This document shows positions 9,158 to 60,762 of a DNA stretch of 64,000 nt, piece after piece. The DNA lies in the IMG/VR virus record IMGVR_UViG_3300020264_000005, positions 30,961 through 94,960 of that record; one strand, written 5' to 3'. Each line of letters begins with the position of its first letter. Position 1 is the stretch's first letter. Both the position numbers and the translations under genes were made by a program. The DNA is from a virus. Taxonomy: Duplodnaviria; Caudoviricetes. Below the pieces are notes generated by a model, which made no database searches, was not told the DNA's origin, and was given only the letters and a program-made list of their open reading frames with translations.

Positions 9158-9163
9158 AAGGAC

Positions 9164-13043: not shown

Positions 13044-13072
13044 TAAATAGAAACAGCCAATGCTGTGTCTAG

Positions 13073-41702: not shown

Positions 41703-44700
41703 ATGAGTTTTAATATCAATTCCGACAAAGAGTTTATCAGGGGTGGCGATCCCAAACTCATCGGTGATAATGAACTTACAATCAGAGGTGGTACTGGATC
41801 ATCTGAGCGCGAAATCTTGCGTACTCAGCTTGACGAGACCACTGGATTACCACGTGTCGGTATTAACCGAACTGGTCAAAGAGTTAACAACATTAGCATC
41901 ACTACGCCAGGTGCTGGTTTCACCACACCACCTAGTGTTATTATTGGACCACCTAACGTAGCAGGTGGCATCCAAGCACTTGCGTCTGCCTTCATCTTTA
42001 ACGGTGAAGTCGTTAACATCGCTATCAATAATCCTGGCTCAGGATATACTGTCGCTCCCTCTGTAACAATTACTAGTGAAAGTGGTGTTGGTGCAACCGC
42101 AGAAGCATTCCTCGATACTGTTGACTTTGAACTTGACATCAACGGTGCTATTAGAACCTCTACGTCTATCATTTCTGACACGGCGAGAATTCTAAACCTC
42201 GACATTGACAACTTCATTACGCCTGACGCCAACTTCAGAGCACCATATCTGAAGAACTTCATGAACAACACTGGTATCCCTTGGGATGGCAATGTTATTA
42301 TTCAGGAAAATTCCTACAGATACTTTGGTGCTAACCTCTATCAGGCACTGAATACTGGTAAGACTGACGCAGACAAAGCTCCTACACACACTGATGGTAT
42401 TGAACTAAACGGAGAAGTTCAGTTCAGACACATCGGTTTCCGCGTTGTTGACGAGAATTCATTCGCTTATAATCAAACTGGCGATGATGGTATCTTCCCT
42501 CGCTCAGTAACTCCTCTACTTGGTGATAGATCAAACAAAATTGCAACTACAGAATACGTTCTGAATCTAGCAACGAATGACGTTGGTGGTCGTATTTACG
42601 TTTCACAGCAGATTGGTAGTGACGAGAACGATGGTCGCTCTGCTGTAAACCCAGTTAGAACAATTAAAAAAGCATGTCAGTTGGCATGGCAGACACCTGG
42701 CGTCAAAGAAACTGTTATTGTTTCTGGTGGTGATTATGTAGAAGATAACCCAATCTCTATCCCACCTGATGCATCCATTGTTGGTGATAACTTGCGTCTG
42801 GTAATTATCAGACCTGCCAACCCTGGCAAACACATCATGAAGTTCGGTGATAAGAACTACATCATTGGTGTTACTTATAGAGATAAAGTTGACTCCATTG
42901 GAGATCCAGTCTCCACGTGGGACTTTGCTATGGTCTTCGACGACAAGCAAAGAATTATTATCGACCAAGACACCAATGGAGACTTTGGTGTTAACTTCCC
43001 AGTTGGTCACCAAATCTTTGGTCCTGATCAGTTCCGTGTTGACTTCCAAGAGAACACTGGTCTCTCATCACTACAAACTGGTCTAGAAGTAGTTGGTGTT
43101 AACACTGGTTCTAGAGCAAAAATTATTGGTGTTAAATTTGACACTGAACTTGGTGCAAGTGCATACACAACTGGTGAACTCGACGTTACCCTGACTAGTG
43201 GTTCTTTCCTAGAGGGTGAGAGTTTCAACTATATTGTTACAGGTTCAGCAGGAACAGATCTTGGACTTACTGTAACTGAAACTGCTGGTGAGAACAAGAT
43301 TAAACTAACGGATAATCCATCTTCGGATATTCCACCAGGTACATATATCTACCTTGATGATACAGATGATATTGACTTCACTCAAGGTTTCTACGAAGTC
43401 AAAGAAATTGATGATGACAATGCTCCTAACTATTGGATCGTAGAAGTTGTACCTATTCTGAATGCTAGTACATGGGATTCAACCAGAACAGCAAATATCG
43501 ATCTTCTGTCAGCAAACATTGTTACAGAAACAGTTGATACTACTTCACTATCTTCAATTAGAGCAGAAGGTGAAGTTGTAAGTGTCGATGAAGATATTGT
43601 ATCACAACTACCTATTCAAAAGATTGATTTCTCTCTACAGGGAGATCCAAGCATTGCAACTGGTGGTTTCCAGAATGAGCAGTTTGGTAATGCAGAAGAT
43701 CTTGGTGGTATTGTAATCTTCACCAACGAACTGGTTGGTAGAGATAACTTCCACGACTTCAAAGAAGGTCAAGAAATTGAGATCTCTGGTCTTCCAACCT
43801 CTGCACCTGACCTATCATTCCTTAATGGTAAGCAAAGAATTTATAAAGTTCTAGAAGATGCTGATGGTCGTGCAAGACGTTTTGTTATTCCTAAGAAGTT
43901 TCCTGCTCTAACACAGGCAGACTTTGATCCTGGTCAAAATGCAACAGTAACTTCTTACTCCAAGTCAGTTACTCTATCACTACTCAACTCACCAAACACC
44001 TTCCCACTATCTACTCCTGTAGAAAGAAGGTTCCAAGATGCTTGTACTTTCTTACGTAACAACAGAGACTTCATTGCTGATGAAGTTGTAGGAAGAATCA
44101 ATGATGAATTTAAGACCACTCATTACTCAGTATATGATATTGGTGGTACTCCAACTGCATCATACACTCCATCTGATGTAGGATATGACCCAGCATCTGG
44201 TCTAGTTACATTCACTGTCAACAATCATGGATTGAATGATGGTGACGGTATCAGAATTGCTGATAATGGTATTGTGTTCACTTGTGCCATGGATGGTTAC
44301 AAGACTGAACACCCTGCACCACAACCACATCATTTCTCCAGTGGTAAGTCACTACCTATTCTGTCATCAACTACTAATACATTCACAGTTAATGTAGGAC
44401 AGACTCAACCAAACCAAACTTTCACTCCTTCTAACGCAGTATATGATCCATCAACTGGTGATTTAACTCTGGAGATTGGCACTCACAGTTTGTCTACTGG
44501 TGAGGGTATTGTATTTGAACCAAATTCACTGAAGTTCACTTGCAACATGGACGGTAACCAATCCGTCAAGTCATATCCACGTCCTGGCATTGACCCATAC
44601 GCTGGAAAGTCAGTACCTCTAACTGGAGTTACTGATACATCGATCACCATGAATGTTGGTGTATCGAGACCTAATCAATATTTCACTCCAACTGATGCAC

Positions 44701-47700
44701 AGTATAATGCTGCTACTGGTGACCTAACCCTTACTGTCGGACAGCATGGTTTGGGAGTTGGTAGAAGCGTTGTTATTAACGACAACTCTCTAACGTTTAC
44801 CTGTGATCAGGACGGCAATGCTACCCAGCATACCTATCCTCGTTCTGGTTCTGACCCATATTCAGGTAAGTCTATTGAGATTACTGCTGTTGGAGCATCA
44901 ACTCACACCCCAACTGATGCTGATTATGACGCATCAACTGGTGTTATTGTATTCACTGTCAACAGTCACGGATTCTCTAATGGTGATTATGTCAAGATTG
45001 ACGATAATGCACTAACTTATACTTGTGATCTAGATGGTGATGCTACTCAGCATACCTATCCTAGAACAAATCACGATATTGCAAGCGGTCGCTGGTTTGA
45101 GATCAATAACAAAACTGCCAACACCTTTGAGATTAATGTTGGTGGTTCTTCTTACACTGGTACTCACACATTCGTAAGTGCTGCTAGCAATTCACTACAG
45201 AGACAAGACGGAACCTTCACTGTCAATGTTGGCGCAGCAGGTTCTGCATCTGGTTCTACTCACACGTTTGTTACCGCTGCATCTGGTGCAGTTAAGCATG
45301 AACCACAGTCACCACACACCTTCGCTGGTGCTGTAACTGGTGCTGTTAAGCACCTACCAAGATCTGCTCACCAGTTCAAGAGAGCAGTCGCTGACTCAAT
45401 TACTGTTGGTGGTTCTGACTTCAAGATCTTCCTCGGAACGACTAGTGATGTACACACTTATGTAAGTGGTGGTACTGTCAAGTTTGGTGGACAAACTTAT
45501 AATATCAGTGCATTTACTTATGATAACGTTGCTTCTGGTACTGCAACTATCACTACCTCTGCTCCAATTCCTGGCTTAGCAGAAGATTCGATGGTCGAAC
45601 TAGATGGTATTCTTCTATCATGTAGTTCAGGACAGAAAGAATATCCAGCATTCAATATCAAGGGTAGTGATGATCAGTGTCGTCAAGACGTTGTTCACTT
45701 CATCAACGCTCTAATTAGAGACCTAGAATTTGGTTCTAACTTCAATATTATTGAAGCAGCTAAGAAGTACATTGTTGGTGCGAAGATTGGATTCGTTGAG
45801 AACGAAATTATCCAAACAGTTCGTGGTATTGAGTATGCTAGACAACTAGCAATTCTCGCAATGAGAAACTGGAGAGAGGATAATGGTACTCCTAGTGATC
45901 CTATCTACACTCCAAAGTATTCTGCACTACCAAGATACTTCGATGACACTGTAATTACATCAACTGCTACCAATGCACAAGGTGTTGCTTGTGATGATGT
46001 AAGATCTGCTATCGATACTCTAGCATACCTTTGGGTAGATGTTCTAGCAAACAATGCATCTGGTACTTACTTGGATGCAGCATACTTGATCGCAAGAAAC
46101 AAGGATGCTATTGCTGATCAGGCACTTGCTGATACCGAAGCAAGATATCCATCATTGAGACTCAGTGATGTCAACCAGAGAAAGTGCCGTAGAGACGTTA
46201 GATTTATTCTTGCTTCTCTAATCAGAGACCTTGTGCTTGGTGGCAACTCTGGTATCATCACCAACGCTGAACTATATTACACGGGTTCTGCACTGACTGG
46301 TGTTGATGCATCTGTACTACCACAGACAAGATATGCATATGAGAGAGTTGAATTCTACGCCAAGGCGGCGATGCGTAACTGGTCTGGTGGTGACGTTATC
46401 CAGACTACTCCATCATTTGCAACATACGATTCAACCAATGGAACTGTAGTTGTTAACTTCCCAGATCCAACTCAGTCAATCACGACGAATGACAGAATTG
46501 CATTCCAAGAGGGTGCTCTAACATTCCAGTGTGACATGGGTTCTGGTGCTGCTAACCATGCAAGCCCAACTGATAACGATAGAAACTATGGTAAGAGTCT
46601 CGCAATTACTAACGTTACATCCAGCAGTGGAGTTACTAGTGTAACATGTAATGTTGGTGATGCAGGAACTGCTGCTGGTGTAGCACATACATTTGTAAGT
46701 GCTCTGACAAATGCAACTCTTATCATCTACAACCCAATTGATATCAGCACCCCAGTTCCTAAGTTTGAGGATTGGAACACCCTAGTTGATGCTAGTGGTT
46801 CTGCTGCTATTGCGGTTCATACCCCAACTGATGCTACTTACGATCCTTCTAATGGTGACTTTACAGTTACTGTTAACAATCATGGATTGTCTACATCAAA
46901 TACAATCCGTATTGCACCAGAATCGTTTGTATTCACCTGTGCAATGGACGGCAATAAGACCGAACATGCTCTACCAGGCATCGGTCAGAATGCATACGGA
47001 AACTCACTACAAATTACTGGAACTACCACAAACACTTACACAGTAAACGTTGGTGCTTCTGGTCCAGGTCGTGGGTGGACTCCATCTGCAGCTGATTATA
47101 ACCCAGCGACTGGTGATCTGACTTTGACCGTTGGCGAAAGTCACACCCTGTCTGTAGGCGAAGGAATTATCATTGAAGATAATTCACTGAACTTCACCTG
47201 CGACATGGATAACAATGACTCTGTTAAGTCATATCCACGTCCTGGCATCGATCCATTTGCAGGAAGATCAATGCCTGTTACGGCAGTGACTGCAGATACG
47301 ATCACTGTTAATGCTGGTATATCGAGACCTAACCAATACTTCACTCCAAGTGCAGTTACCTATGATGCTAACAATGGTGACATGACTGTTACCGTGGGTC
47401 AGCATGGTCTAGGTGTTGGACGCAATGTTGTACTTGAGAATAATTCGTTCACCTTCACCTGTGATCAAGACGGTAACGCAACTCAGCACACCTATCCACG
47501 TCCTGGCAGTGACCCTCAAGCAGGTAAGTCAATCGCTATCACTGCTGTTGGTGCTACTCAGCATACAGTTACAGATGCTGATTATAATGCAGCAACTGGC
47601 AACTTGCAACTAACCGTCTCAAGTCACGGTTTTGCAAATGGCGATTACATTAAGGTTGCAGATGGTTCTCTAACCTTTACATGCGATCTAGATGGCAATA

Positions 47701-50700
47701 CAGCACAGAAATCATATCCTCGTGCTGGATATGATCGTCCATCTGGTCGCTGGATGCAAATCAGCAATGTAACTACAAATACATTCGATATCAACGTTGG
47801 TCCTTCTTCTTACACAGGTGCTCATACTTTTGTAAGTGCTACATCTAATGGCGTTGATCGTCAAGATGGTACATTCACTATCAACGTAGGTAATGCTGGT
47901 TCTGCATCTGGTTCTACTCACCAGTTTGTATCAGCAACTACTAATGCTATTAAGCACGAACCTCAGTCAGCACATACTTTTGTAAATGCAACCTCGAATG
48001 CAGTCAAGCATCTCCCACAATCTGCACATACATTTGTAAGAACTACACAAGATTCTATCAACGTATATGCACCAGGATCTGCTCCTCTATGTGCAAACGT
48101 AGAGTCTAGCATCTCTACTGAGATGGAAATTCTAGATGGCATTCTTGAGTATGCTTCTAACCCAGATTCATCCACAGCAATTGAGCCTGGCTCACTTACC
48201 AAGAATACTGGAACTCTCTTTGATACCTCAGATATTATTACATATCCTGATAACTTCATCTATGACCAGAACAATGTCAGGATGGCGATTCGTGGTAACT
48301 ACGATGACTATCCAATCATTGAGGCATCTCCATATACCCAGAACTCTTCTGTTATCTCCTTCCTAGGTGGTGGCGGTGCTCTGGTTGATGGTTCTAAAGT
48401 TAAGCAACCTAACTGTCCTTTCCCTGGCTTGGAACTTGACGGTACTGCGACATTCCCTAATCAGGGTAAGTCGATGGTTGCATCCGCATTCACCATCGTC
48501 TCCTTTGGTGGTACAGGATATAAGGTTATCGAAGATGGTTATACCCAGTTGGTTTCTGTCTTCGTTATCTTCTGTGCTGACGGTGTTCTTGCTGAGTCTG
48601 GTGGTTATTGCTCCATCACGAACTCTGCTACTAACTTCGGTATCTTCGCTCTACGTGGTAGAGGATTCAGAAGAGAAGCATACACATTTGACGTTGGTAC
48701 AATTACCAATGTTTCTTCTACTCCTACTGGTAGAACTATCTTCACCGTTGGTGGACTTGGTAGAGAACCACTAGAGCACTATGTTGTCAAGATCGACAAC
48801 CACTATAACACCAACCCAGACATCGAATTCTTCATCGATTCTGTTGGTGCTGTTACGGTTGGTCCTCCTTTCTCTGCACAACTTACTATTGACAATGGTA
48901 CTGGCGATGCTGTTGATGTAACCAACGTTACTAGTGGTCAGCAGATCTCACCTGGCTCACTGGTTGGTGAGACTATCAGACTACACAGACCATCTATTGT
49001 TAACTCCTCCTCCCACACTTGGGAATTCGCAGGTTCTGGTACTAACTATCTTGCACTACCTGAAAACGGTGGTACTAAGGTTGTTGCTAACGAGCAGGTA
49101 TCTGAAGACTACGGTAGAGTCTACTGTTCAGGTACTGACGAACTTGGTGACTTCAAGGTTGGTACTTTCGCACAGATCGAGAACAGAACTGGTGCTATTA
49201 CCTTCACGGGTACTGTTACCATCTCTGAAGTTGAATTCTTGAAACTGAAAGGTGGTGACACGGTTGTTACTGGTTTCGACGCATCCAACACTCTTGGTGG
49301 TGCTAACTCCAGTGACTCCAAACTACCTACTCAGAAGGCAGTTAGAGATTATATCACTAACAACCTTGGACCTTACATCAACAAACCATACTCCACGAAC
49401 GCTGTTCCTAGAGCACTGGTTGAACTTACTGACTCTGGTAAGATTTCCGTTGACCAGATCCCAGCACTCAGACCATTTGAAGTTTACACTGTTGCTAACC
49501 AACAGGAAAGACTTGCAATTGAAGGCGCACTTGCTGGTGACATCGCGATTGAACAGGATACATCAACGTCATTCATTCTTAACAATGACCTTGATAGTCA
49601 GTTCCTCTCCTTCAGTGTTGATACTTCACTACAGTTTACTCTCGGTGATATCTTCACTGGTAGCGTATCTGGTGGTCGTATGCAGGCTACCGAATACAGA
49701 CAGGGTGTTGTATTCTCAATCAATATTAGTGACGGTGGTTCTGGTTACTCATCTCCTCCTAACATCACCATTACTGGTGGTAACCCACAGTCTGGTTCAG
49801 TCGAGGCAAAGGCAGAAGCAGTCATTGCAAACGGTGAAGTTGTTGCAATCGATATCATTGCATTCAACGGATTCAAGGGTGGTAAAGGATACACCATTCC
49901 ACCTACTGTAACCATTGCTGCTCCAGCAGGATCTGGTTTACAGGCACAAGCAAATGCACTAATTGAATCCAGACTGTATGGTGACATTGTAAACAGAATC
50001 AAACTAGAAGATACCGATCAATTCGATTCTAGTGATGTTCCTTCAGTTACTATTGATATTGACAGAGCAGTCAATACATCCTCTAATGATGCTAACAACT
50101 GGGTATCACTATCCTCTAACCAGATTTCTGCAACTGACATCGTATCTGGTGTTATTGAATCTGACAGATTGGCATCTGGTGGTGCTGCAAACTCCTTCAC
50201 GTTCCTACGTGGTGACCAGAACTTCGCACTAGCAGTTCAGTCTATCAAGGGTGCTGAGAAGAGATACTTTGCAAAACTAACTCAGAACTTCAATAGTGGT
50301 TCTAGTGAGATGGTATTCGCCACTCTACCTGAAGCACTAATCGGTCACGAGATTCTAAACAACGTTGTTGGTATCCAACCTAACACTAATATTACTGGTG
50401 TTCTTACAACTGGTGGATCAACAACAATCTCACTAAACAACCCAGCAACTGCATCAATCTCTGCTGGTACTGTTATCGAATTTGAGCGTGGTGCTTCACC
50501 TCTCATCTTTGATTCTACTTACACTCAGGGTAACTTCGTTGATACGATTGTTATTTCTAACGGTGGTACTGGATTCACCAACGGTCAGTTCTTCGATGTT
50601 GATCTAACTGGTGGTACTGGTACTGGACTCAAGTGTAACCTAACCATTGCTGGTGGTGCTATCAATGAACTAACCGTAACTGACGGTGGTACTGGATTCG

Positions 50701-53372
50701 ATGCTGACTTCAATATCACTCAGGCACCAACTGAAATTGGCGCTGGTTCTGGTCTAGTTCTACTTGCTAAGGTCAGCACTGTCAACAGACAGTATGCAAA
50801 CGTTGCAATGGACGTTCAGAGAGTTTCTGATCTTACCATTTCATCCGACCTTTACGGTACTATTGGTGTTGCAAGATTCAAGAAATCTCAGTTCACCATT
50901 GGTGCATCAGGTAATGGTTCAGTTGACCTAAACGTTGGTGCTGACTCTGGTCTTGACGCTGACCTTCTGGACGGTGCTCAGGGTGCATTCTACCTCAACT
51001 CTGGAAACCAGAATGCTGGTACTCTACCAACTGACCGACTCGCTGGTACGTATAACATCAGCGTATCTGGTTCTGCTGGTAACGCACTGAGACTACAAAC
51101 TGGTACTAACAACCCAACGTCCAACCCAACTCCAGATAACTTCGTTGGTGGTATTGTTGCTAACACGGTTAACAACAGTTCTAACCAGTTGAGTGACGGT
51201 GGTGCTAAGAACCTAGTAATGACCATCAGAGCAGGTGGTTCTAGTTTCGATGCTTCCTTCGGTGGTGTAAGACAACTTGCATTTACTGATAACGATAACA
51301 TGTGGCTCCGTGGTTCTGGAACTGGTGTTACCAGCTTCGGTTCATGGGCACTCATGTGGAACTCCCTGAACGATGGTATCGGATCAGGTCTAGACGCTGA
51401 CAAACTTGATAACAAGCAAGGCACTTGGTATCAGAATGCTCTGAACATTAACCTAGGAACTCTATCTGATAACAGACTACCTGACTGGATCGACGAAACT
51501 GCATTTAAGGATAAGATCGAAATCAGATCTTACAATGGTGATACTCGTTACAAGATCTACATTTCTGGTCAGATCCTAAATGCTACCCCATTCACGCCAG
51601 GCAACACAGTCAACCTGTACAATGCTAATGGTCAGGGTACTGGTGTTATTGATATTGACAACATCATTATTAACAATGACACGCAAGATAATGCAAATGA
51701 TTATACCATCATTATTGGTAGACTGACAACTGGTAACTTTGTTGGTGCTGAAACGATTGGTACAGCATCAGATAGAAAAGAATTCCAAGACTTTACTATT
51801 GATATTGGTAACACTATTCCTGTTGCTACTCTTGAGAGTGACGGATCTACCGCAAACCTCAGACTTGGTAGAAAGGATGGTATTGCTTCCTCACCAGGCA
51901 TCTACTTCAGTTCTTCTGCACTGACTGCAAACTACAATGCTGCAATTGTATCATCTGGTGGTACTGCAACCGATGGTTCTGGTTCACTAAACGTTCAGGT
52001 AGAAAACGCAGATGCATTCACTCAGAATGGATCCGTTATCTGGAACGCAGGTAACATTGAATTCCAGTCAGCAAACATTGCAGACACTGGAGTCAAGCGT
52101 GATGGCAACGGTGGATTCTCCGCTGGAACTATCACCCTAGATGTTGCTGGTGGTGCTGAACTGATTGGTGCTGCTTCACTCAACGTCCTGAAAGAAGGCG
52201 ACACAATGACTGGTGGTCTAACCATCGGTACTGGTTCTGCTGCTACACAGGGTCTATCGGTTTCGGGTGATGTTGACTTCCTCGCTACCTTAGATGTTAC
52301 TGGAGATCTGAATGTTGATAGTGGCACACTCTTCGTTGATGTATCACAGAACAACATTGGTATTAACACAGGAACTACTCTGATTGCTGGTCTAACTGTA
52401 GACATCCAAGGTGGAACAGTTGGTGCTCTACGCCTACAAGGACATGATGGAGCAAGTCATCACATGTACTTCGATGGCAGTAAGAGTGAATACTTCGATG
52501 ATGCAAATCATGCGATGATGTTCCTCTCCTCTGGATCACCATCAAGTACACATCCTGGTCAAGGCGCACACTGGATCTTCAACGGTAGAGCATCTGATAG
52601 AGATTTCATCTTCCGCAACAACTCTAATAACAAACTAACCATTCAAGGTGACGGTGGTCTCAATATCACAAACAGTGGTACTAACAGAGCAATCCAAGCA
52701 GATAATGATATCGCAACGAATTCAAACTTCGTTGCTGGTAATGCTGGTGATAACGGTGGTGCTGGTCTATCACTACTTGGTGCGACTGGATTCAGAAACT
52801 ACAGAGTCGGCAGCAACTTTGTTGCTAATAACATGTTCGCTGTTGAATACTCTAGTGGAGTTGGTGGTAACTCCTTCTCTGGTGGAACTATTATCGCAGG
52901 TCTGTTTGATGGTTCAAACGCAAGAGTTGGTATTAACACTACTACCCTCCAAGGTAATGACCCAGAAGCAAATAACCAACTAAGGGAATACATCCTGAAC
53001 GTTGGTGGTGACATGAACATCAATGGTCAACTATTCCAGAACAACTCTGAATTCGTTACCTCCAGATGGACAGAATCACCTAACGGCAATGATATCTACA
53101 GAGCATCTAAAGTTGGTATTGGTTTCACTACCGATAAAGATCCTGGCTATGCACTAGATGTTGAGGGAGACTTCAACGTTGTTGGCGCTACTTACATTGG
53201 TGGAGTCAAACAGTATCAAGACTCACAGGGTATCATCAAAGCATACAATGACACCATTCTGTATGATGTTGACTTGGATGCTAACAGCAACAGTTTCTCC
53301 AACGGACCAATTATTGTTGCCTCTGGTGTTGACATTGTATTTGGCAATAATGCCAAGTGGACCATCTTATAA
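41703..53372 (+). CDS. giant tail fibre/virion protein (beta-helix core with inserted repeats)
   Basis: YVSQQIGSDENDG..RTIKKA beta-helix cap; GLDADLLDG and VGINT fibre motifs; internal repeats. Confidence 0.85.
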   Translation: MSFNINSDKEFIRGGDPKLIGDNELTIRGGTGSSEREILRTQLDETTGLPRVGINRTGQRVNNISITTPGAGFTTPPSVIIGPPNVAGGIQALASAFIFNGEVVNIAINNPGSGYTVAPSVTITSESGVGATAEAFLDTVDFELDINGAIRTSTSIISDTARILNLDIDNFITPDANFRAPYLKNFMNNTGIPWDGNVIIQENSYRYFGANLYQALNTGKTDADKAPTHTDGIELNGEVQFRHIGFRVVDENSFAYNQTGDDGIFPRSVTPLLGDRSNKIATTEYVLNLATNDVGGRIYVSQQIGSDENDGRSAVNPVRTIKKACQLAWQTPGVKETVIVSGGDYVEDNPISIPPDASIVGDNLRLVIIRPANPGKHIMKFGDKNYIIGVTYRDKVDSIGDPVSTWDFAMVFDDKQRIIIDQDTNGDFGVNFPVGHQIFGPDQFRVDFQENTGLSSLQTGLEVVGVNTGSRAKIIGVKFDTELGASAYTTGELDVTLTSGSFLEGESFNYIVTGSAGTDLGLTVTETAGENKIKLTDNPSSDIPPGTYIYLDDTDDIDFTQGFYEVKEIDDDNAPNYWIVEVVPILNASTWDSTRTANIDLLSANIVTETVDTTSLSSIRAEGEVVSVDEDIVSQLPIQKIDFSLQGDPSIATGGFQNEQFGNAEDLGGIVIFTNELVGRDNFHDFKEGQEIEISGLPTSAPDLSFLNGKQRIYKVLEDADGRARRFVIPKKFPALTQADFDPGQNATVTSYSKSVTLSLLNSPNTFPLSTPVERRFQDACTFLRNNRDFIADEVVGRINDEFKTTHYSVYDIGGTPTASYTPSDVGYDPASGLVTFTVNNHGLNDGDGIRIADNGIVFTCAMDGYKTEHPAPQPHHFSSGKSLPILSSTTNTFTVNVGQTQPNQTFTPSNAVYDPSTGDLTLEIGTHSLSTGEGIVFEPNSLKFTCNMDGNQSVKSYPRPGIDPYAGKSVPLTGVTDTSITMNVGVSRPNQYFTPTDAQYNAATGDLTLTVGQHGLGVGRSVVINDNSLTFTCDQDGNATQHTYPRSGSDPYSGKSIEITAVGASTHTPTDADYDASTGVIVFTVNSHGFSNGDYVKIDDNALTYTCDLDGDATQHTYPRTNHDIASGRWFEINNKTANTFEINVGGSSYTGTHTFVSAASNSLQRQDGTFTVNVGAAGSASGSTHTFVTAASGAVKHEPQSPHTFAGAVTGAVKHLPRSAHQFKRAVADSITVGGSDFKIFLGTTSDVHTYVSGGTVKFGGQTYNISAFTYDNVASGTATITTSAPIPGLAEDSMVELDGILLSCSSGQKEYPAFNIKGSDDQCRQDVVHFINALIRDLEFGSNFNIIEAAKKYIVGAKIGFVENEIIQTVRGIEYARQLAILAMRNWREDNGTPSDPIYTPKYSALPRYFDDTVITSTATNAQGVACDDVRSAIDTLAYLWVDVLANNASGTYLDAAYLIARNKDAIADQALADTEARYPSLRLSDVNQRKCRRDVRFILASLIRDLVLGGNSGIITNAELYYTGSALTGVDASVLPQTRYAYERVEFYAKAAMRNWSGGDVIQTTPSFATYDSTNGTVVVNFPDPTQSITTNDRIAFQEGALTFQCDMGSGAANHASPTDNDRNYGKSLAITNVTSSSGVTSVTCNVGDAGTAAGVAHTFVSALTNATLIIYNPIDISTPVPKFEDWNTLVDASGSAAIAVHTPTDATYDPSNGDFTVTVNNHGLSTSNTIRIAPESFVFTCAMDGNKTEHALPGIGQNAYGNSLQITGTTTNTYTVNVGASGPGRGWTPSAADYNPATGDLTLTVGESHTLSVGEGIIIEDNSLNFTCDMDNNDSVKSYPRPGIDPFAGRSMPVTAVTADTITVNAGISRPNQYFTPSAVTYDANNGDMTVTVGQHGLGVGRNVVLENNSFTFTCDQDGNATQHTYPRPGSDPQAGKSIAITAVGATQHTVTDADYNAATGNLQLTVSSHGFANGDYIKVADGSLTFTCDLDGNTAQKSYPRAGYDRPSGRWMQISNVTTNTFDINVGPSSYTGAHTFVSATSNGVDRQDGTFTINVGNAGSASGSTHQFVSATTNAIKHEPQSAHTFVNATSNAVKHLPQSAHTFVRTTQDSINVYAPGSAPLCANVESSISTEMEILDGILEYASNPDSSTAIEPGSLTKNTGTLFDTSDIITYPDNFIYDQNNVRMAIRGNYDDYPIIEASPYTQNSSVISFLGGGGALVDGSKVKQPNCPFPGLELDGTATFPNQGKSMVASAFTIVSFGGTGYKVIEDGYTQLVSVFVIFCADGVLAESGGYCSITNSATNFGIFALRGRGFRREAYTFDVGTITNVSSTPTGRTIFTVGGLGREPLEHYVVKIDNHYNTNPDIEFFIDSVGAVTVGPPFSAQLTIDNGTGDAVDVTNVTSGQQISPGSLVGETIRLHRPSIVNSSSHTWEFAGSGTNYLALPENGGTKVVANEQVSEDYGRVYCSGTDELGDFKVGTFAQIENRTGAITFTGTVTISEVEFLKLKGGDTVVTGFDASNTLGGANSSDSKLPTQKAVRDYITNNLGPYINKPYSTNAVPRALVELTDSGKISVDQIPALRPFEVYTVANQQERLAIEGALAGDIAIEQDTSTSFILNNDLDSQFLSFSVDTSLQFTLGDIFTGSVSGGRMQATEYRQGVVFSINISDGGSGYSSPPNITITGGNPQSGSVEAKAEAVIANGEVVAIDIIAFNGFKGGKGYTIPPTVTIAAPAGSGLQAQANALIESRLYGDIVNRIKLEDTDQFDSSDVPSVTIDIDRAVNTSSNDANNWVSLSSNQISATDIVSGVIESDRLASGGAANSFTFLRGDQNFALAVQSIKGAEKRYFAKLTQNFNSGSSEMVFATLPEALIGHEILNNVVGIQPNTNITGVLTTGGSTTISLNNPATASISAGTVIEFERGASPLIFDSTYTQGNFVDTIVISNGGTGFTNGQFFDVDLTGGTGTGLKCNLTIAGGAINELTVTDGGTGFDADFNITQAPTEIGAGSGLVLLAKVSTVNRQYANVAMDVQRVSDLTISSDLYGTIGVARFKKSQFTIGASGNGSVDLNVGADSGLDADLLDGAQGAFYLNSGNQNAGTLPTDRLAGTYNISVSGSAGNALRLQTGTNNPTSNPTPDNFVGGIVANTVNNSSNQLSDGGAKNLVMTIRAGGSSFDASFGGVRQLAFTDNDNMWLRGSGTGVTSFGSWALMWNSLNDGIGSGLDADKLDNKQGTWYQNALNINLGTLSDNRLPDWIDETAFKDKIEIRSYNGDTRYKIYISGQILNATPFTPGNTVNLYNANGQGTGVIDIDNIIINNDTQDNANDYTIIIGRLTTGNFVGAETIGTASDRKEFQDFTIDIGNTIPVATLESDGSTANLRLGRKDGIASSPGIYFSSSALTANYNAAIVSSGGTATDGSGSLNVQVENADAFTQNGSVIWNAGNIEFQSANIADTGVKRDGNGGFSAGTITLDVAGGAELIGAASLNVLKEGDTMTGGLTIGTGSAATQGLSVSGDVDFLATLDVTGDLNVDSGTLFVDVSQNNIGINTGTTLIAGLTVDIQGGTVGALRLQGHDGASHHMYFDGSKSEYFDDANHAMMFLSSGSPSSTHPGQGAHWIFNGRASDRDFIFRNNSNNKLTIQGDGGLNITNSGTNRAIQADNDIATNSNFVAGNAGDNGGAGLSLLGATGFRNYRVGSNFVANNMFAVEYSSGVGGNSFSGGTIIAGLFDGSNARVGINTTTLQGNDPEANNQLREYILNVGGDMNINGQLFQNNSEFVTSRWTESPNGNDIYRASKVGIGFTTDKDPGYALDVEGDFNVVGATYIGGVKQYQDSQGIIKAYNDTILYDVDLDANSNSFSNGPIIVASGVDIVFGNNAKWTIL
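44161..48065 (+). repeat. Duplicated ~1.25-kb intragenic block, each holding four nested repeat domains
   Basis: About 44161-45400 vs 46815-48065; similar at DNA level, e.g. TCATATCCACGTCCTGGCAT in both; lone intact domain at about 46401-46720. Confidence 0.9.
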
Positions 53373-53630: not shown

Positions 53631-54221
53631 ATGAACAAAATTATTGCAACTAAAGATGTTGGCACTAACACTTGGACAGTAACTAAAGAAGTTTCTGCCT
53701 CAAGAGATCTTCACGTGTCGTTCGCTTTTGTTCGTGGAGGCGAGACTGAATTTGATTTCGAGAAGTTAAATTTCGGAATTAAAATTTATAGAGCTTCTGG
53801 TGAAAAAGAATGCCTGTTAAATTATAACTGGCCTCTCTCAGAAGCACTACGTCATAAGTCAAACAAAGCTCCATACTTGGAAGAGTTTGATTTTGTTTGG
53901 GATGTAGATGAGGCATATAAAATTGTCATTACTGGTGGTGAGGAAATGCAGCAATCATCTCACGAAAGTATGTTTGCTGTTCCTAGACCACCTTCACCTT
54001 ATAATTCATGGGTATGGGATGGTACTGAGTGGAAAGCACCAGTAGGACCATATTCACACACTTCGGAACTATCCGATTATCAAGTCTCTGGTTCATCTAA
54101 GGACACGTTCTCTTGGGATGAAACTGCAAAAGAATGGAAATTGGATGTTGATGAACCAAACCCAAGAGACGCATTATCAAGACCAGACAGAGTTGTTGAT
54201 CCTAACAATCCTGTTGGTTGA
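53631..54221 (+). CDS. hypothetical protein (possible fibre assembly factor)
   Basis: PPSPYNSWVWDGTEWKAPV..WDETAKEW motif. Confidence 0.7.
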   Translation: MNKIIATKDVGTNTWTVTKEVSASRDLHVSFAFVRGGETEFDFEKLNFGIKIYRASGEKECLLNYNWPLSEALRHKSNKAPYLEEFDFVWDVDEAYKIVITGGEEMQQSSHESMFAVPRPPSPYNSWVWDGTEWKAPVGPYSHTSELSDYQVSGSSKDTFSWDETAKEWKLDVDEPNPRDALSRPDRVVDPNNPVG

Positions 54222-54260
54222 TAAATAAAATTAACATCGTAATAGTAATCAAGGAATAGT

Positions 54261-55430
54261 ATGTCTTCCATTACAGTAGAAAAAATCAGATTGACTGGAG
54301 CACTACAAATTCCAGTTCTGACCCAAGCACAAATCGATGCTCTGTCTCCTGAACAGGGTCAGATTGTGTACAACTCTGATATCAACTATATCCAGATCTA
54401 TGGTCCATTTGATAACTGGGGACTAACTGATATTGGTACTGGTAATGACCTATGGGACATGGAGAACCAGTCCAATAACGGAACTAACTCACAACTCTTC
54501 AAGAGTCTAGTTGCTCGTGGTGATAACGAGGGTCCAGATGCATTCCAAATGGCTGCTTCATACTCGAATGACTCGGGTGCATGGGCAGGAAATACTCGTT
54601 TCTTGTATCAGTCTGGATTCCAAGGATACCAAACTGTTGCTATTCCTAAAGATGGTTTATACAGATTTGAAATTGGTGGAGCAAGAGGAGGAAAATGTTC
54701 TAACAGAGGTGTTACCATCATGTATGGTGCATCAGCAACTGGTGACTTCTATCTAACGAAAGACCAGAGAATCACCATGGCAGTTGGTGTAGGTGGTGGT
54801 GACTATTCTTCGCCTCATGGAAATGAGGCTGGTGGCGGGGGAGCAACGTGGGTCTTTGACTCCACAAACAATAATTTGTTGATGGCAGCTGGTGGTGCTG
54901 GCGGTAGTGCTGGTAACACTTGGGGCACGTCATGTACTAGAGATACAAATAAAGGTAGAGGACAATCTTCTCAGGGTGTACAAAGTTTCAGTTGCGCTTA
55001 CAACGTTTCTGCACCATCTACTGGTCAAGGCGGAAATGCTAACGGTAACTATCACGGCGGTGCTGGTGGCGGTTTCCAAGGCGATGGCGCTAATGGTGGA
55101 ACCCACTGTGGTAACGCTAGAGGTGGCGGCGGATATGGTTCTGGACTAGTTGGTGGTACAGGAAATACATGTTATACTACTGGTGGTTTTGCTAACTCTG
55201 GTGGATTTGGCGGAGGCGGCGGTGGTCAGTTATCTGGTCCTGGCGCTGGCGGTGGATACACTGGAGGATGTACGGCAGGACAGTGGTCCTCTTACAGCAC
55301 CCACGGTGGTGGCGGTGGATCATACAATGCAGCAACCACGAACAACTCAATCAGTGCTGGTGGAAACACTGGTGGCACTGGTGGTTATGCTGGTGCTGGT
55401 TATGTTATTATGACTTGGTTGAGCGAATGA
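54261..55430 (+). CDS. glycine-rich adhesin-like protein (polyglycine-II, ALK/LTK Gly-rich-like)
   Basis: GARGG..AGGGGAT..AAGGAGGS..GGFGGGGGG..GAGGGYTGG..GGGGGSY. Confidence 0.75.
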   Translation: MSSITVEKIRLTGALQIPVLTQAQIDALSPEQGQIVYNSDINYIQIYGPFDNWGLTDIGTGNDLWDMENQSNNGTNSQLFKSLVARGDNEGPDAFQMAASYSNDSGAWAGNTRFLYQSGFQGYQTVAIPKDGLYRFEIGGARGGKCSNRGVTIMYGASATGDFYLTKDQRITMAVGVGGGDYSSPHGNEAGGGGATWVFDSTNNNLLMAAGGAGGSAGNTWGTSCTRDTNKGRGQSSQGVQSFSCAYNVSAPSTGQGGNANGNYHGGAGGGFQGDGANGGTHCGNARGGGGYGSGLVGGTGNTCYTTGGFANSGGFGGGGGGQLSGPGAGGGYTGGCTAGQWSSYSTHGGGGGSYNAATTNNSISAGGNTGGTGGYAGAGYVIMTWLSE

Positions 55431-55639
55431 CATCTGATGAACATGTTCCTTTCCTTATGGTCCCTAGAAGGGTAAGTAAGGAAAGGTTTGATACTTGTCT
55501 TGAATGTGAACACTTTCGTCAATCATTAAAACAATGCAAAATTTGTAATTGTTTTATGCAAGCGAAGGTACAATTCCAAGATGCAAAATGTCCAGACGGA
55601 CGGTGGGGAACATGGAAACCCCGTAGGACTACTAAATAA
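55427..55639 (+). CDS. small Cys-rich protein (DUF6171-like)
   Basis: RFDTCLECEH..QCKICNCFMQAK..CPDGRW; ATGA-coupled start at 55427. Confidence 0.75.
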   Translation: MTSDEHVPFLMVPRRVSKERFDTCLECEHFRQSLKQCKICNCFMQAKVQFQDAKCPDGRWGTWKPRRTTK

Positions 55640-55665
55640 TACACACACTATTTCACGTGATTACA

Positions 55666-55854
55666 ATGGCACAAACACCTGAACAACTAAAAGCAAATTT
55701 TGAAGAACAACTCGGCAATGCAGAAAAACAGATTGCTGAATTGAAAGAGAATCTAGCGAAAGCAGAAGAATACAGACTGAAACTTATTGGTGGTATTGAG
55801 ACCCTAGCACTACTGAATCCACCAGAAGAAGCAGCAGAAGCACCAGCAGAATAG
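55666..55854 (+). CDS. small coiled-coil protein
   Basis: QLKANFEEQL..EYRLKLIGGIETL; after CTAAATA. Confidence 0.8.
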   Translation: MAQTPEQLKANFEEQLGNAEKQIAELKENLAKAEEYRLKLIGGIETLALLNPPEEAAEAPAE

Positions 55855-55860
55855 TCCCAG

Positions 55861-55894
55861 ATCCCTTCTTCCTAAATAGGTAAGAAGGGATTTT
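55861..55894 (+). terminator. Terminator hairpin with a late promoter in its loop
   Basis: ATCCCTTCTT-CCTAAATAGGT-AAGAAGGGAT followed by TTT. Confidence 0.75.
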
Positions 55895-55902
55895 TGTGTG
55901 TA

Positions 55903-56703
55903 ATGGCATCTCCAAATTCAAGAGCTGAACTCATCACTTATTGTAAGAGGCAGCTTGGTGAGCCTGTCTTACAAGTCAATATCGACGACGAACAGGTAAA
56001 CAACGTTATTGATGATACGTATCAGTTCTTTCAAGAGAACTGCTATAACGGCATGGAGAGGTGCTACCTTACCCATTCACTGACTGCTGATGACATCACT
56101 AGATTTAAAGCAACAGTAACGACCAGCAATGGAAGTTCTGATTGGAATGAAGCAACAAACTACATTCCTATCCCAGCTCATGTCACTGGTATTAGTAAAG
56201 TTTTTGGATTAGTAAGTAACTCTATTCGTTCTAATCTCTTCGGTGTTGAGTATCAACTATATCTAAATGATCTCTATGCATTCGGATCACTTGATATTCT
56301 CAATTATTTTATGACTAAGCAGTATCTAGAAACTCTAGATATGGTTCTGAACAATGGTTCATTCCAACAGTTCAGATTTACAGCGCGTCGTGATCGTTTA
56401 TATCTTGACGTGGATGCTGACTTCCTTGCAGAAGATAAGTATCTGTTGATTGAGGCACACAGGATGATCGATCCTACAGATGCCACAGAAATGAATAATG
56501 ATCCTTTTGTTAAAAAGTATGCTACTGCTCTTATGAAGAAGCAGTGGGGTATGAACTTGATTAAGTATAACAACGTCCAACTTCCTGGCGGTGTTACACT
56601 CAATGGTAGAGAGATCTACACAGACGCACTAGCAGAAATTGAGAAAATCGAAAGCGAAGTTCTCAGTAAGTATGCAATTCCACCTATGGATATGATCGGA
56701 TAA
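55903..56703 (+). CDS. g13: neck protein gp13
   Basis: YCKRQLGEPVLQVNIDDEQ..KKQWGMNLIKY..LPGGVTLNG. Confidence 0.95.
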   Translation: MASPNSRAELITYCKRQLGEPVLQVNIDDEQVNNVIDDTYQFFQENCYNGMERCYLTHSLTADDITRFKATVTTSNGSSDWNEATNYIPIPAHVTGISKVFGLVSNSIRSNLFGVEYQLYLNDLYAFGSLDILNYFMTKQYLETLDMVLNNGSFQQFRFTARRDRLYLDVDADFLAEDKYLLIEAHRMIDPTDATEMNNDPFVKKYATALMKKQWGMNLIKYNNVQLPGGVTLNGREIYTDALAEIEKIESEVLSKYAIPPMDMIG

Positions 56704-56704
56704 A

Positions 56705-57826
56705 ATGCCTACCAGTCCCTATTTTCCAACATACTATCAAGGTCACAGTGGCGAACAAGGTCTCGTACAGGATCTTGTGGATGAACAAATCAAGTTGTTT
56801 GGTACAGATATATATTATATCCCTAGAGTCGTCTTAACAGACAGCACTTTAGATGAGGTAAGATATTCTAAGTATCAGGAGCAGTTTCAGATTGAGATGC
56901 TTCTGCAGAATGTCACAGGTTTTGGAGACAACGCAGAGTTCATCAGCAAGTTCGGTCTTCGTATCACAGACGAAGTAATTTTTCGTGTGTCCACTAGAAG
57001 GTGGGATGAAGAAGTAGCAGAACATAATCCTAATCTCACACTCGATAGTAGACCTAACGAGGGAGACTTATTATACTTCCCTCTAACAAAAGATATTTAC
57101 GAAATTAAATTTGTAGGAAAGGAAGAACCATTCTTCCAGTTTGGTAAGATTCAATTCTATGCTATCACTGCTGAGATCTATGAGGTTGGCAGCGATGACT
57201 TCGAGACTGGTGTTGAGGAGATTGATAGTATCGAACAACTAGTTGATAACGCCATCAAACTATTCATGGATCCTGGCGGCACAGGAGACTTTGCTGTGGG
57301 TGAAGAAATTGTTGGCGACGAGTTCCTTGCTAAAGCAACTGCAACTCTCACGGGAGATGCTGTTACTGGTATTACAATCACAGACGGTGGATCGCATTAT
57401 AAGGTTGCTACACCACCATCAGTAACTATTACAGGAGACGGGACAGGTGCGACAGCTACTGCTACGGTTAGTTCTACTGGCATTGTTAACGGCATTACTA
57501 TCACCAGTGGTGGGAGCGGTTATAGTTCTGCACCTACTGTCACAATTGATTACTCCCCCAAAGATAACAGAGCAGAAGTCAAGTCTTGGGACAGCGCAAC
57601 TAGAGCTCTCGAAGTCATCAACAGAACAGGAACGTTTACTACTGCTGAAGTAGTCACTGGTCTAACTTCAGGTGCTAAGTGGAGTCCTGAAACATTTGAC
57701 ACTCTAAATAATGTCAGCAGCAACTACGATCAAAATAGACAGATCGAAGATAGTGCGGATGACATTATCGATTGGACTGAAGGCAATCCATTCGGTGAAT
57801 ATGGTAATCAGACAGGTAGCTTCTAA
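56705..57826 (+). CDS. g14: neck protein gp14
   Basis: EQIKLFGTDIYYIPR..SKFGL..RPNEGDLLYFP; carries an inserted GGSGY repeat module. Confidence 0.95.
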   Translation: MPTSPYFPTYYQGHSGEQGLVQDLVDEQIKLFGTDIYYIPRVVLTDSTLDEVRYSKYQEQFQIEMLLQNVTGFGDNAEFISKFGLRITDEVIFRVSTRRWDEEVAEHNPNLTLDSRPNEGDLLYFPLTKDIYEIKFVGKEEPFFQFGKIQFYAITAEIYEVGSDDFETGVEEIDSIEQLVDNAIKLFMDPGGTGDFAVGEEIVGDEFLAKATATLTGDAVTGITITDGGSHYKVATPPSVTITGDGTGATATATVSSTGIVNGITITSGGSGYSSAPTVTIDYSPKDNRAEVKSWDSATRALEVINRTGTFTTAEVVTGLTSGAKWSPETFDTLNNVSSNYDQNRQIEDSADDIIDWTEGNPFGEYGNQTGSF

Positions 57827-58626
57827 TGTTAGGATCACATTTTTATAATTCAATCGTTCGTAAGAACATCATTGCGTTTGGTACGCTCTTCAATAATCTA
57901 ACGATGAAGAGTACGGATCCTAGCGACGGTACTGTACTGGAAGAAATTAAAGTTCCTCTAGCATATGGTCCTAAGCAGAAGTTTCTAGTTCGTCTAGAAG
58001 AGAACCAGTCTAACAGAAAAGTTGCAATCACCCTACCACGTCTCTACTTTGAGATGACAGGAATTGAATACGATTCTTCCCGTAAAACGTCACCAATTCA
58101 AAAATACAAAACGATCATTGCTGATAATGGTAATGAGGTCAGAACTCAGTATGTTCCTGTTCCTTATAATCTAAACTTTGAATTGGGAGTTATTGCTAAA
58201 TCTCAGGATGATGCATTGCAAATTACTGAGCAGATCTTACCATATTTTCAACCGTCATTTTCAGTGACTCTTAATATGATTCCTGATATGAATGAGAAAA
58301 GAGATGTTGCTATTGTATTAAACAATATTTCTCATGAGGATGAGTGGGACGATAGTTTTTATGAGCGTAGATATATCATCTATACTTTACGCTTCACTAT
58401 GAAGTCCTATCTATACGGTCCATATAACACATCTGATGTTATTAAGAAAGCAATCATTCATGAAACTCTTGGTGATCTTTCTGTCAACCGTAGAACAATT
58501 ACAAGAACATATACACCTAAAGCAAAAACAGATATCAATACAGATGGTAGCATCGATGTAAACGATGATGCACTATTAGATGCTGGTGATGACTTTGGAT
58601 TTAATGAAGGAATCGAATTCTTATGA
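57826..58626 (+). CDS. g15: tail sheath stabiliser/terminator gp15
   Basis: FGTLFNN..KVPLAYGPKQKFL..EQILPYFQP. Confidence 0.95.
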   Translation: MLGSHFYNSIVRKNIIAFGTLFNNLTMKSTDPSDGTVLEEIKVPLAYGPKQKFLVRLEENQSNRKVAITLPRLYFEMTGIEYDSSRKTSPIQKYKTIIADNGNEVRTQYVPVPYNLNFELGVIAKSQDDALQITEQILPYFQPSFSVTLNMIPDMNEKRDVAIVLNNISHEDEWDDSFYERRYIIYTLRFTMKSYLYGPYNTSDVIKKAIIHETLGDLSVNRRTITRTYTPKAKTDINTDGSIDVNDDALLDAGDDFGFNEGIEFL

Positions 58627-59039
58627 GTAGCCTAGAAGAAAACATGGAAGATATGCTCAACATCAGTGCTGAGGTTGTTGAGGAATCTAAACCATCCAAA
58701 CCAGTGCCACCCACTGTTGACAAGGAAGATAAGCAAAAAGACTACGAATATACACGTGGAGAACTATACAGCCTCATAGACAAGGGTCAGGAGGCGGTAC
58801 AAGGCGCTTTAGAGGTCGCACAGGAGTCAGGGCACCCTAGAGCATACGAGGTCGCTGTAGCGGCAATGAAGCACGTCGCAGACATGACTGATAAATTGGT
58901 GGATCTTCAGAAGAAGATGAAAGATCTCGATGCCGAGCAGAAGAAAGGTCCAAGTTCCGTAACTAATAATGCAATGTTCGTAGGTTCTACCGCAGAATTA
59001 CAGAAGATGCTTAAGGAAATGGGTGGAGGAAAAAGATAA
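58623..59039 (+). CDS. g16: terminase small subunit gp16
   Basis: DYEYTR..ESGHPRAYEV..FVGSTAELQKML. Confidence 0.95.
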   Translation: MSSLEENMEDMLNISAEVVEESKPSKPVPPTVDKEDKQKDYEYTRGELYSLIDKGQEAVQGALEVAQESGHPRAYEVAVAAMKHVADMTDKLVDLQKKMKDLDAEQKKGPSSVTNNAMFVGSTAELQKMLKEMGGGKR

Positions 59040-59067
59040 ATATATCCGTAAACCCTCGTCGGTTATC

Positions 59068-59490
59068 ATGAGAGATTATAAAGAATTTAAAGAACTCTGT
59101 GAGGCAAAGCGCGGTCTCTACGCAAATATCCACGCTAAACGAAAGAGAGGAGAAGCACCAGCGAAACCAGGTAGTAAGGACTACCCCGCTAAGGATGCTT
59201 TCAAAAAGGCGGCGAGGACTGCCAAAGAAAGTTTTGAACTCGAAGAAGCAGCCTGGACCAGAAAGGAAGGCAAGAAAAAGTCTGGAGGTCTTAATGAGAA
59301 GGGACGTAAATCTTACGAAAGAGAGAATCCTGGAAGCGACCTTAAAGCACCAAGCAAGAAGGTTGGAAATCCCCGTAGGGCATCATTCTGCGCTCGAATG
59401 AAAGGGATGAAAAAGAAACTAACTTCCAAAAAGACCGCTAACGATAAAGACAGTCGTATCAACAAATCTCTACGTGCGTGGAATTGCTGA
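59068..59490 (+). CDS. basic protein (DUF6321-like), probable internal head protein
   Basis: GGLNEKGRKSY..RRASFCARMKG..SRINKSLRAWNC; ATG 59068 after late promoter GATAAATA. Confidence 0.7.
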   Translation: MRDYKEFKELCEAKRGLYANIHAKRKRGEAPAKPGSKDYPAKDAFKKAARTAKESFELEEAAWTRKEGKKKSGGLNEKGRKSYERENPGSDLKAPSKKVGNPRRASFCARMKGMKKKLTSKKTANDKDSRINKSLRAWNC

Positions 59491-59550
59491 CATACTTATA
59501 AAAACATTGTTAAGATAACGAATAATTACCTACTGAAACTATAATTAGTT

Positions 59551-59775
59551 ATGAGTTTTGAACTGAAAATGCGTTTAAACGACACTGACATCTCACGCCT
59601 TATCACTGCCTGTAAACTCTACCAAGATAAGACAGGAAGCGAATACATGTGGGAACAATATGATGACTTGATTAACAAACTCAGAGCGTATCAAGATAAC
59701 TATTCGGCGGACAATGAAGATTCTATTCGCATTTCTAGCAACACTATTCCTAGCAGCTCCAGCGTGGGCAGTTGA
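59551..59775 (+). CDS. conserved cyanophage hypothetical protein
   Basis: ACKLYQDKTGSEYMWEQYDDLINKL. Confidence 0.7.
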   Translation: MSFELKMRLNDTDISRLITACKLYQDKTGSEYMWEQYDDLINKLRAYQDNYSADNEDSIRISSNTIPSSSSVGS

Positions 59776-60037
59776 TGTAATTATGGGTTCTAACGGGAAC
59801 CTAGTTTTTGATCCAGCAGAGATTACAATTTCTGCAGGAGATACAGTTCACTTTGAAAACAACATGCTGCCACCACACAATATTATTGTGGAGGGTCGCC
59901 CTGATCTATCCAGAGAGTCACTAATGTTTGCTCCTGGTGAGTCACAAGACATCACATTTGCAGATGCAGGTGACTATGAATACTGGTGTGGTCCTCATAA
60001 AGGTGCAGGCATGATCGGCACGGTACATGTAGAATGA
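59714..60037 (+). CDS. petE: plastocyanin
   Basis: Signal peptide AWA/V; PHN and YWCGPHKGAGM copper ligands. Confidence 0.95.
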   Translation: MKILFAFLATLFLAAPAWAVDVIMGSNGNLVFDPAEITISAGDTVHFENNMLPPHNIIVEGRPDLSRESLMFAPGESQDITFADAGDYEYWCGPHKGAGMIGTVHVE

Positions 60038-60754: not shown

Positions 60755-60762
60755 AAAACAAA

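Follow-up and report, generated by a model that had tools for sequence, protein, structure and literature searches.

Phycobiliprotein homologues interrupted by long nested inserts in the giant tail-fibre protein of a T4-like cyanophage

The stretch of DNA analysed here (the window, 64,000 nucleotides of the IMG/VR record IMGVR_UViG_3300020264_000005) comes from a contig of a T4-like cyanomyovirus that is 94,960 bases long and about 49% complete by estimate. Its closest GenBank relatives are Synechococcus phages, e.g. Sf-CH11 and ACG-2014i. The window holds the gene of a giant tail-fibre protein, in which an earlier note, made from the letters alone, had picked out two domains resembling phycobiliproteins (PBPs), here called copies C and D, both of which were said to keep two cysteines. 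Each copy is a helical domain of about 160 amino acids (aa), split by a beta-rich insert of about 510-560 aa. The two stand in tandem, with copy D beginning at aa 1453, right behind the last helix of copy C, which ends at aa 1452. The features of the locus, as placed with hidden Markov models (HMMs) of the domain and of its segments, are as follows.

41703 to 53372, plus strand: giant tail-fibre gene, 3889 aa, bearing copies C and D; a stop-free open reading frame (ORF) matched by the PHROG family phrog_5342 (tail fibre protein, E 0)
44022 to 44117, plus strand: copy C, N-terminal helices (PBP helices A-B), aa 774-805; segment HMM E 1.3e-11, two helices in the model of the orthologue L192
44118 to 45659, plus strand: insert of copy C in the B-E loop, aa 806-1319; flanked by the N and E segments and made up of nested, beta-rich repeats that bear an FTCxxDG motif
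45660 to 46058, plus strand: copy C, helices E to H, aa 1320-1452; HMM E 4.5e-13
45678 and 45990, plus strand: codons of the copy C cysteine sites, Cys1326 in QCRQD and the terminal Cys1430
46059 to 46406, plus strand: copy D, helices A to G, aa 1453-1568, with Cys1495 of KCRRD at codon 46185; HMM E 1.6e-17
46407 to 48074, plus strand: insert of copy D in the G-H loop, aa 1569-2124; a second set of nested beta-repeats, between the G and H segments
48075 to 48149, plus strand: copy D, last helix (H), aa 2125-2149, with the terminal Cys2130 at codon 48090; segment HMM E 4.6e-7

The motifs that the earlier note had quoted are all in place. In copy C these are QDACTFLRNNRD at aa 778 (nucleotide 44034), DQCRQDVVHF at aa 1324, ARQLAILAMRNW at aa 1379 and VACDDVRSAIDTL at aa 1428; in copy D they are LDAAYLIARNKD at aa 1457, RKCRRDVRF at aa 1493, AKAAMRNW at aa 1553 and PLCANVESSISTEM at aa 2128. 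The four cysteine codons (45678, 45990, 46185 and 48090) likewise lie where it had put them. A Pfam scan of the whole 3889-aa fibre protein gave nothing useful, the best match being Head_binding at E 0.26. The relatives of the carrier proteins in GenBank are labelled gp7, tail fibre or virion structural protein.

Two further copies, A and B, are borne by a gp7-like protein in the same window, and a third giant protein, the first on the contig, carries five more.

15266 to 26062, plus strand: gp7-like protein, 3598 aa, bearing copies A and B
21428 to 21754, plus strand: copy A, helices A to G; first cysteine absent (DYSLD), PF00502 E 0.0079
22097 to 22600, plus strand: copy B, contiguous and complete, within the G-H loop of copy A; the copy used for the AlphaFold model
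22700 to 22768, plus strand: last helix of copy A with the terminal cysteine (ECNTVVSAIDNL), downstream of copy B; segment HMM E 7.3e-4
Contig positions 294 to 13856, just upstream of the window: third giant protein, 4520 aa (locus L234), with five nested PBP-like copies

That C and D are repeats of this domain is borne out by an HMM trained on nothing but the copy B orthologues from the gp7-like ORF, which finds copy C (E 4.5e-13) and copy D (E 1.6e-17), far beyond chance; BLAST also recovers both. The cysteine counts of the earlier note hold as well. The terminal cysteine is kept in four of the four copies A to D and the cysteine of the Cys-x-Arg-Asp (CxRD) type in three of them, copy A retaining the terminal residue while having DYSLD at the first site. 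The contig as a whole has nine copies in its three giant proteins, with the terminal cysteine in 9/9 and the first in 7/9; the first giant protein, where segment HMMs find five N, five E and five H segments, contributes one copy that is without the first cysteine and retains the terminal one.

The long inserts lie inside the domains, as had been supposed: segment HMMs show copy C to be broken between aa 805 and 1320 and copy D between aa 1568 and 2125. The G-H loop is used alike in two of the proteins, holding copy B in copy A and the insert in copy D. Insert length differs among 14 orthologues of the fibre protein from IMG/VR, four of which have inserts of about 100 aa and three of which (L194-L196) have an uninterrupted copy D. 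The copy C insert ranges from about 100 to about 510 aa; that of copy D is missing from L194-L196 and measures about 100 aa in L188-L193. These orthologues, with their short or absent inserts, validate the in-silico excision of the inserts from the longer proteins. In their short version the inserts are all-beta, with a weak resemblance to phage tail-tip, baseplate and N4 tail domains (Z 6.4-7.2; for the copy C insert, Z 6.5-6.8 to phage tail-tip and baseplate domains). The inserts at 44118-45659 and 46407-48074 are themselves nested beta-domain repeats of the form FTCxxDG ... HTF(V/I)SA, spanning 0 to about 560 aa across orthologues. The nested arms exit from the loops of the domains, so the earlier description of C and D as lying at the base of protruding arms is a fair account of the architecture.

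Copies C and D are genuine phycobiliprotein homologues, of the PBP lineage of the globin-like fold, inside a virion fibre. A profile of the copy B orthologues, run against the PDB, finds nearly only phycocyanin and phycoerythrin chains, at a sub-threshold E of ~0.03 (0.028), and a six-frame search with PF00502 scores copy A at 13.5 bits and copy D at 12.5 bits (E 0.0065, the match ending at profile position 84). The match becomes significant with an alignment of 16 diverse contiguous copies, taken from this phage, S-PM2, P-HM2 and IMG/VR and 24-57% identical, and the gain over the single-family profile comes from the added diversity of paralogues. Among 177,635 PDB sequences the best E is 1.9e-6, and 26 distinct PBP sequences are found at E<1e-3. 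Apart from the PBP-like bacterial fluorescent protein 8u0f, the 60 matches listed are PBPs throughout, with no haem or RsbR-type globin among them. When the same 16-copy profile is compared by hhalign with CpcA/B and CpeA/B (eight sequences from cyanobacterial plasmids), the probability is 96.3% and E is 1.8e-9. Identity between the phage domain and PBPs is only 12-20%. The phycobiliprotein likeness noticed earlier is thus a significant one at the level of profiles.

The cysteines fall on known positions of the phycobiliproteins. The first had been likened to PBP Cys84, and hhalign places it exactly there, with Cys-x-Arg-Asp on Cys84-Arg86-Asp87; column by column, C46/R48/D49/Y59/G64 of the phage profile pair with C82/R84/D85/Y95/G100 of the PBPs. 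The helix-E site that matches PBP C82/R84/D85 reads KCRRD in copy D, KCVRD in copy B and QCRQD, with Gln for Arg, in copy C. The proposed correspondence of the terminal cysteine with the beta-Cys153/155/165 site stands with moderate confidence, from hhalign and from the arithmetic of structural ranges. It falls on CpcB Cys153 in three hhalign alignments over the full length (confidence digits 6-8 where beta chains only were used). The structural alignments described below stop 19 residues past it (model residues 142 to 161, and 251 to 270), and this end is the C-terminus of the 184-residue C-phycoerythrin beta chain; in CpeB of Rippkaea orientalis, also of 184 residues, Cys165 sits 19 residues before the end.

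Conservation singles out the same residues. Across 24 copies, 23-60% identical, only A11, N18, C46, D49, G65, N66, Y76 and C142 are invariant, and the helix-E Cys and Asp are invariant in the 16-copy alignment too. Among the loci collected, the terminal cysteine is present in 107/107 unique last helices. Every one of the 117 unique E helices that bear the cysteine has Asp three residues on, and the position two residues on is Arg in 104 and Asp in 13. Where the E helix is without the cysteine (n=32), the Asp is kept in 18 and replaced by Asn in 14. With the Cys lost, the fold can evidently do without the Asp as well, in keeping with a functional site to which both residues belong. In the fibre protein itself, both cysteines and the Asp of copy C are kept by every orthologue with an alignment that reaches them, as is the terminal cysteine of copy D.

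Predicted structures lead to the same family. The AlphaFold model of copy B has six helices and a predicted local distance difference test (pLDDT) score of 80.7. All the top Foldseek rows are PBPs, with 8u0f among the matches, and VIA-align puts phycoerythrin beta (5aqd_M) first, with Z 14.7 and a root-mean-square deviation of 2.6 Å over 146 residues; allophycocyanin reaches 13.2 and ApcE 13.1 (12.4-13.2 for both types), and other globins are at or below 11.1. For the C-D unit we used the short-insert orthologue L192 (562 aa, pLDDT 71), where copy C reaches Z 15.7 to the same phycoerythrin beta chain, and copy D reaches Z 13.9 to the ApcE bilin domain and 13.5 to an allophycocyanin-type chain. 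Foldseek was uninformative on this two-domain model, with allophycocyanin at rank 43, because the domains are discontinuous; VIA-align resolved both. The PBPs reach Z 13-15.7, and the globin-coupled sensor, RsbR and photocobilin globin domains Z 10-11.6. Each copy is a six-helix PBP core (A-B-E-F-G-H) without the N-terminal X-Y hairpin, which in PBPs builds the alpha/beta monomer; its first residues correspond to about PBP residue 25-34, and the alignments set in at PBP residues 25-38. The earlier suggestion that C and D pair like an alpha/beta biliprotein unit is therefore unlikely in its canonical form, since the X-Y helices are absent; copy D, moreover, abuts the last helix of copy C. The absence of these helices speaks against canonical (alpha-beta)3 rings too. 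Chance resemblance, or a bias of AlphaFold, was considered as the source of the likeness and rejected: sequence profiles, which are independent of any model, pick PBPs alone from the 177,635 PDB sequences.

Among GenBank phages, the domain turns up in cyanophages alone. In a tblastn search of 50,697 GenBank phage records, copy B and a copy from the first giant protein matched 322 and 169 records, all of them Synechococcus or Prochlorococcus phages or phages named 'cyanophage', plus one labelled just 'Marine'; among these records, neither T4 nor any phage of heterotrophic bacteria yielded a match. A profile search of 1.84 billion representatives returned 1474 cluster representatives at E≤1e-3, the top 150 of these all being giant proteins, in which as many as 37 stretches match. 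Matched stretches number 35-37 in some metagenomic proteins of 6000-6400 aa, far above the count in any protein on this contig. In S-PM2 (RefSeq NC_006820.1, 168556-173383, locus L212) about 16 tRNA features lie within the 11-kb 'short tail fiber' coding sequence under one locus tag; set within an open frame that encodes PBP-like domains, they look like a coordinate error of the annotation.

A further link to the bilin world is the gene cpeT (PF06206), which S-PM2 and P-HM2 have and P-SSM2 lacks. It encodes a T-type lyase, and such lyases act on the beta-153 position (PMC10452541). In S-PM2, cpeT ends 1.45 kb upstream of a 3779-aa gene with PBP-like domains, on the same strand. In 20/21 of the cpeT loci from IMG/VR, the start of cpeT is followed at a distance of 0.76-2.3 kb by that of a giant ORF bearing the domain, and the remaining locus is cut off at the contig end. 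Conversely, among relatives of the first giant gene with at least 2.5 kb of upstream sequence, 51/53 have cpeT, which at the loci listed ends 0.27-2.5 kb upstream. On one relative contig, 100% identical over a matched N-terminal stretch of 486 aa, cpeT ends 987 nucleotides upstream. The contig studied here starts 293 nucleotides before its first giant gene, so a cpeT of its own would fall just off the contig end. As to other bilin genes, P-HM2 has a reductase, cpeT and the domain, and S-PM2 has cpeT and the domain with no reductase.

The distribution also runs parallel to a known behaviour. P-HM1, P-HM2 and S-PM2 need light for adsorption, and P-SSM2 and P-SSP7 adsorb in the dark (PMC6628666). 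The domain is matched 6 times in P-HM1, 5 times in P-HM2 and 12 times in S-PM2; P-SSM2 and P-SSP7 have zero matches, even at E≤1.

We propose, with confidence that we would place midway between belief and disbelief, that the copies form hubs at the foot of the fibre arms and bear bilin. The hub architecture is shown, with surface loops that bear long nested beta-rich arms, the B-E loop in copy C and the G-H loop in copy D; the B-E loop is also where ApcE has its PB-loop. On the proposed mechanism, bilins made by the host or the phage would be joined by thioether bonds while the fibre folds in the cyanobacterial cytoplasm. The terminal cysteine would be loaded by the phage CpeT or a host CpcT/CpeT, because T-type lyases act on the corresponding site in PBPs, and the CxRD cysteine might be loaded by a host lyase of the S/U or E/F type, or autocatalytically as in ApcE. 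The finished particle would then be pigmented at the foot of its arms. More speculatively, absorbed light could shift the set of the arms, and in this way add to the light-dependent adsorption of some cyanomyoviruses.

The most far-reaching form of this proposal makes the virion itself a biliprotein, the domains being chromophorylated at assembly, with CpeT acting on the terminal cysteine, and serving as a particle-borne photoreceptor that deploys the arms in light. This stronger claim we regard as rather unlikely. If true, such a photoreceptor virion would explain why cyanomyoviruses adsorb in a light-dependent way, and it would place the substrate of CpeT, and of part of the phage's bilin pathway, on the virus and not in the host antenna.

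Several observations weigh against bilin on these domains, or narrow what it might account for. We know of no report of pigmented cyanophage particles. At the level of sequence, copy A, at 16.6 bits, misses the PF00502 gathering score of 22.2 bits; copy C has Gln at the position of PBP Arg86; and 13/117 of the cysteine-bearing copies have Asp two residues after the cysteine, where PBPs have Arg. The 32 E helices without the cysteine belong almost all to one orthologous lineage, that of copy A, and so represent one or few evolutionary events. Gene order is conserved in T4-like cyanophages, which means that the counts of cpeT next to domain genes are inflated and are not independent events, and in P-HM2 cpeT lies far from the domain genes. 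The comparison of five phages for light-dependence amounts to about three independent lineages, and P-SSM2 also adsorbs more poorly in the dark. Finally, the phage bilin genes and the PBP-like domain are only partly linked. With cpeT in 31/153 cyanophage genomes (PMC10452541) and the domain far commoner, a lyase of the phage's own cannot be generally required. Neither cpeT nor a detectable domain accompanies the bilin reductase (PF05996) of P-SSM2, so the domain alone does not explain the bilin genes of phages.

As a rival reading, the domains may have no pigment at all. An ancestral PBP/globin-like domain may have been recruited as a stable, insertion-tolerant platform for fibre arms, its conserved Cys, Asp and Gly-Gly-Asn serving folding and packing in a virion without bilin; we see this as a real possibility, held tentatively. 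It suits domains that sit in structural proteins, tolerate huge nested inserts and are missing the X-Y helices and the features of phycobilisome assembly. It suits, too, the persistence of copy A and of one copy in the first giant protein despite the loss of the first cysteine. A very large family with as many as 37 matched stretches per protein is what one expects of a building block, and a lyase of their own is lacking in most of the phages that bear the domain (PMC10452541). However, folding alone hardly explains why the PBP chromophore-contact triad is kept at 23-60% identity; with the cysteine gone, Asp drifts to Asn and yet the fold persists. In the PBP fold the terminal cysteine would sit at a surface junction of loop and helix, and still it is kept without exception (107/107). 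Coincidence would have to account both for the confinement of the domain to cyanophages and for the neighbourhood of cpeT.

The cysteines might instead stabilise the particle by disulfides or cross-links of another kind, whether inside one domain or from one fibre subunit to the next, the likeness to bilin sites being inherited and its function gone. Two invariant cysteines per domain in an extracellular protein, and the oxidising sea around virions, would agree with such a role, which we nevertheless consider improbable. On the modelled PBP beta fold the two positions are those of Cys82 and Cys153/165, which in PBPs lie on opposite sides of the subunit, too distant for an intradomain disulfide. 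Copy A and one copy in the first giant protein hold the terminal cysteine without the first, and the coupling between Cys and Asp is left unexplained.

Very improbable, in our judgement, is a pocket for a non-covalent ligand (a haem-like tetrapyrrole or a host surface molecule) in a receptor-recognition or sensing module unrelated to bilins: the globin-coupled sensor, RsbR and the photocobilin globin are indeed the next-best structures, at Z 10-11.6, but by sequence profile PBPs alone are matched, conservation falls on the residues of the PBP thioether site and not on a proximal His, and the PBPs stand 3-4 Z units over other globins.

Downstream of the fibre gene, the stretch from 53631 to 63230 holds further phage genes.

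56705 to 57826: T4 neck protein
57826 to 58626: gp15 tail sheath stabiliser
60034 to 60540: PTOX/alternative oxidase
60763 to 61797: gnd
61797 to 63230: zwf

The gene of a DUF6321 protein also lies within this stretch, and three of its ORFs (53631-54221, 54261-55430 and 55894-56703) have zero matches in Pfam. The phage zwf has copies, 80-81% identical, on short contigs binned into metagenome-assembled genomes named 'Methanobacteriota archaeon' and 'Rhodopirellula sp.', and in both cases these are most likely mis-binned cyanophage contigs. No cyanobacterial zwf is found in the best 80 matches to the phage gene.

The PBP-like domains are of wider interest for several reasons. We found no published description of such domains in phage particles, and the family, with its 1474 cluster representatives, is a large one that Pfam misses and for which we likewise found no description in the literature. 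Some of these phages adsorb in light only, whatever the photosynthesis of the host, and light-sensitive receptors or tail fibres have been put forward as possible, untested causes (PMC6628666). Similarly, the benefit of phage CpeT and bilin-synthesis genes has been called unclear (PMC2984593). Both questions have been open for 15-20 years, and an adsorption apparatus built with PBP homologues whose attachment sites are intact would bear on each of them. The PBP-like domain is found in cyanophages only, adjoins cpeT and is present in the light-requiring phages that have been tested, and from this a bilin-bearing hub follows as a concrete hypothesis that can be tested simply. It would be a case of a virus taking the light-harvesting fold of its host into its own particle. 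The acceptance of whole domains in the B-E and G-H loops of a PBP fold may also be of interest to protein engineers.

Among known systems, the T4-type baseplate wedge protein gp7 and the long and short tail-fibre proteins of cyanomyoviruses go by the same labels as the proteins described here, although PBP-like copies were matched in cyanophage records only. The protein 8u0f and the photocobilin globin domain (8j2y/8j2w) illustrate that the bilin-binding PBP/globin fold is employed beyond phycobilisomes; these differ in being soluble cellular proteins, not parts of a virion, and in sequence they are no closer to the phage domain than the classical PBPs are.

A close comparison is with the PBP beta subunits (CpcB and CpeB, PF00502), which have the globin-like helical core in common with the phage domain and give the best structural match (Z 14.7-15.7). 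They share Cys-x-Arg-Asp on helix E at Cys82/84, followed by Tyr and Gly-Gly, and, at beta-153/155/165, the second cysteine immediately ahead of the last helix; a variable G-H loop is likewise common to phycoerythrin beta and the phage domain. In contrast to these subunits, the phage domain is without the X-Y hairpin, and thus forms no canonical alpha/beta monomer, and it sits in virion proteins of 3600-4500 aa with nested domains of up to about 560 aa.

Another close parallel is the PB domain of ApcE (LCM). ApcE differs in being a component of the host phycobilisome with REP linker domains, in having a loop for its insertion where the phage has whole nested domains, and in being without a cysteine of the beta-155 type. 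It is likewise a PBP fold set in a large multidomain protein and broken by an insertion, and it is a strong structural match (Z 12.4-13.9), with aligned ranges that span the ApcE loop. ApcE attaches its bilin without a lyase, and is thus a precedent for the CxRD site of the fibre domains.

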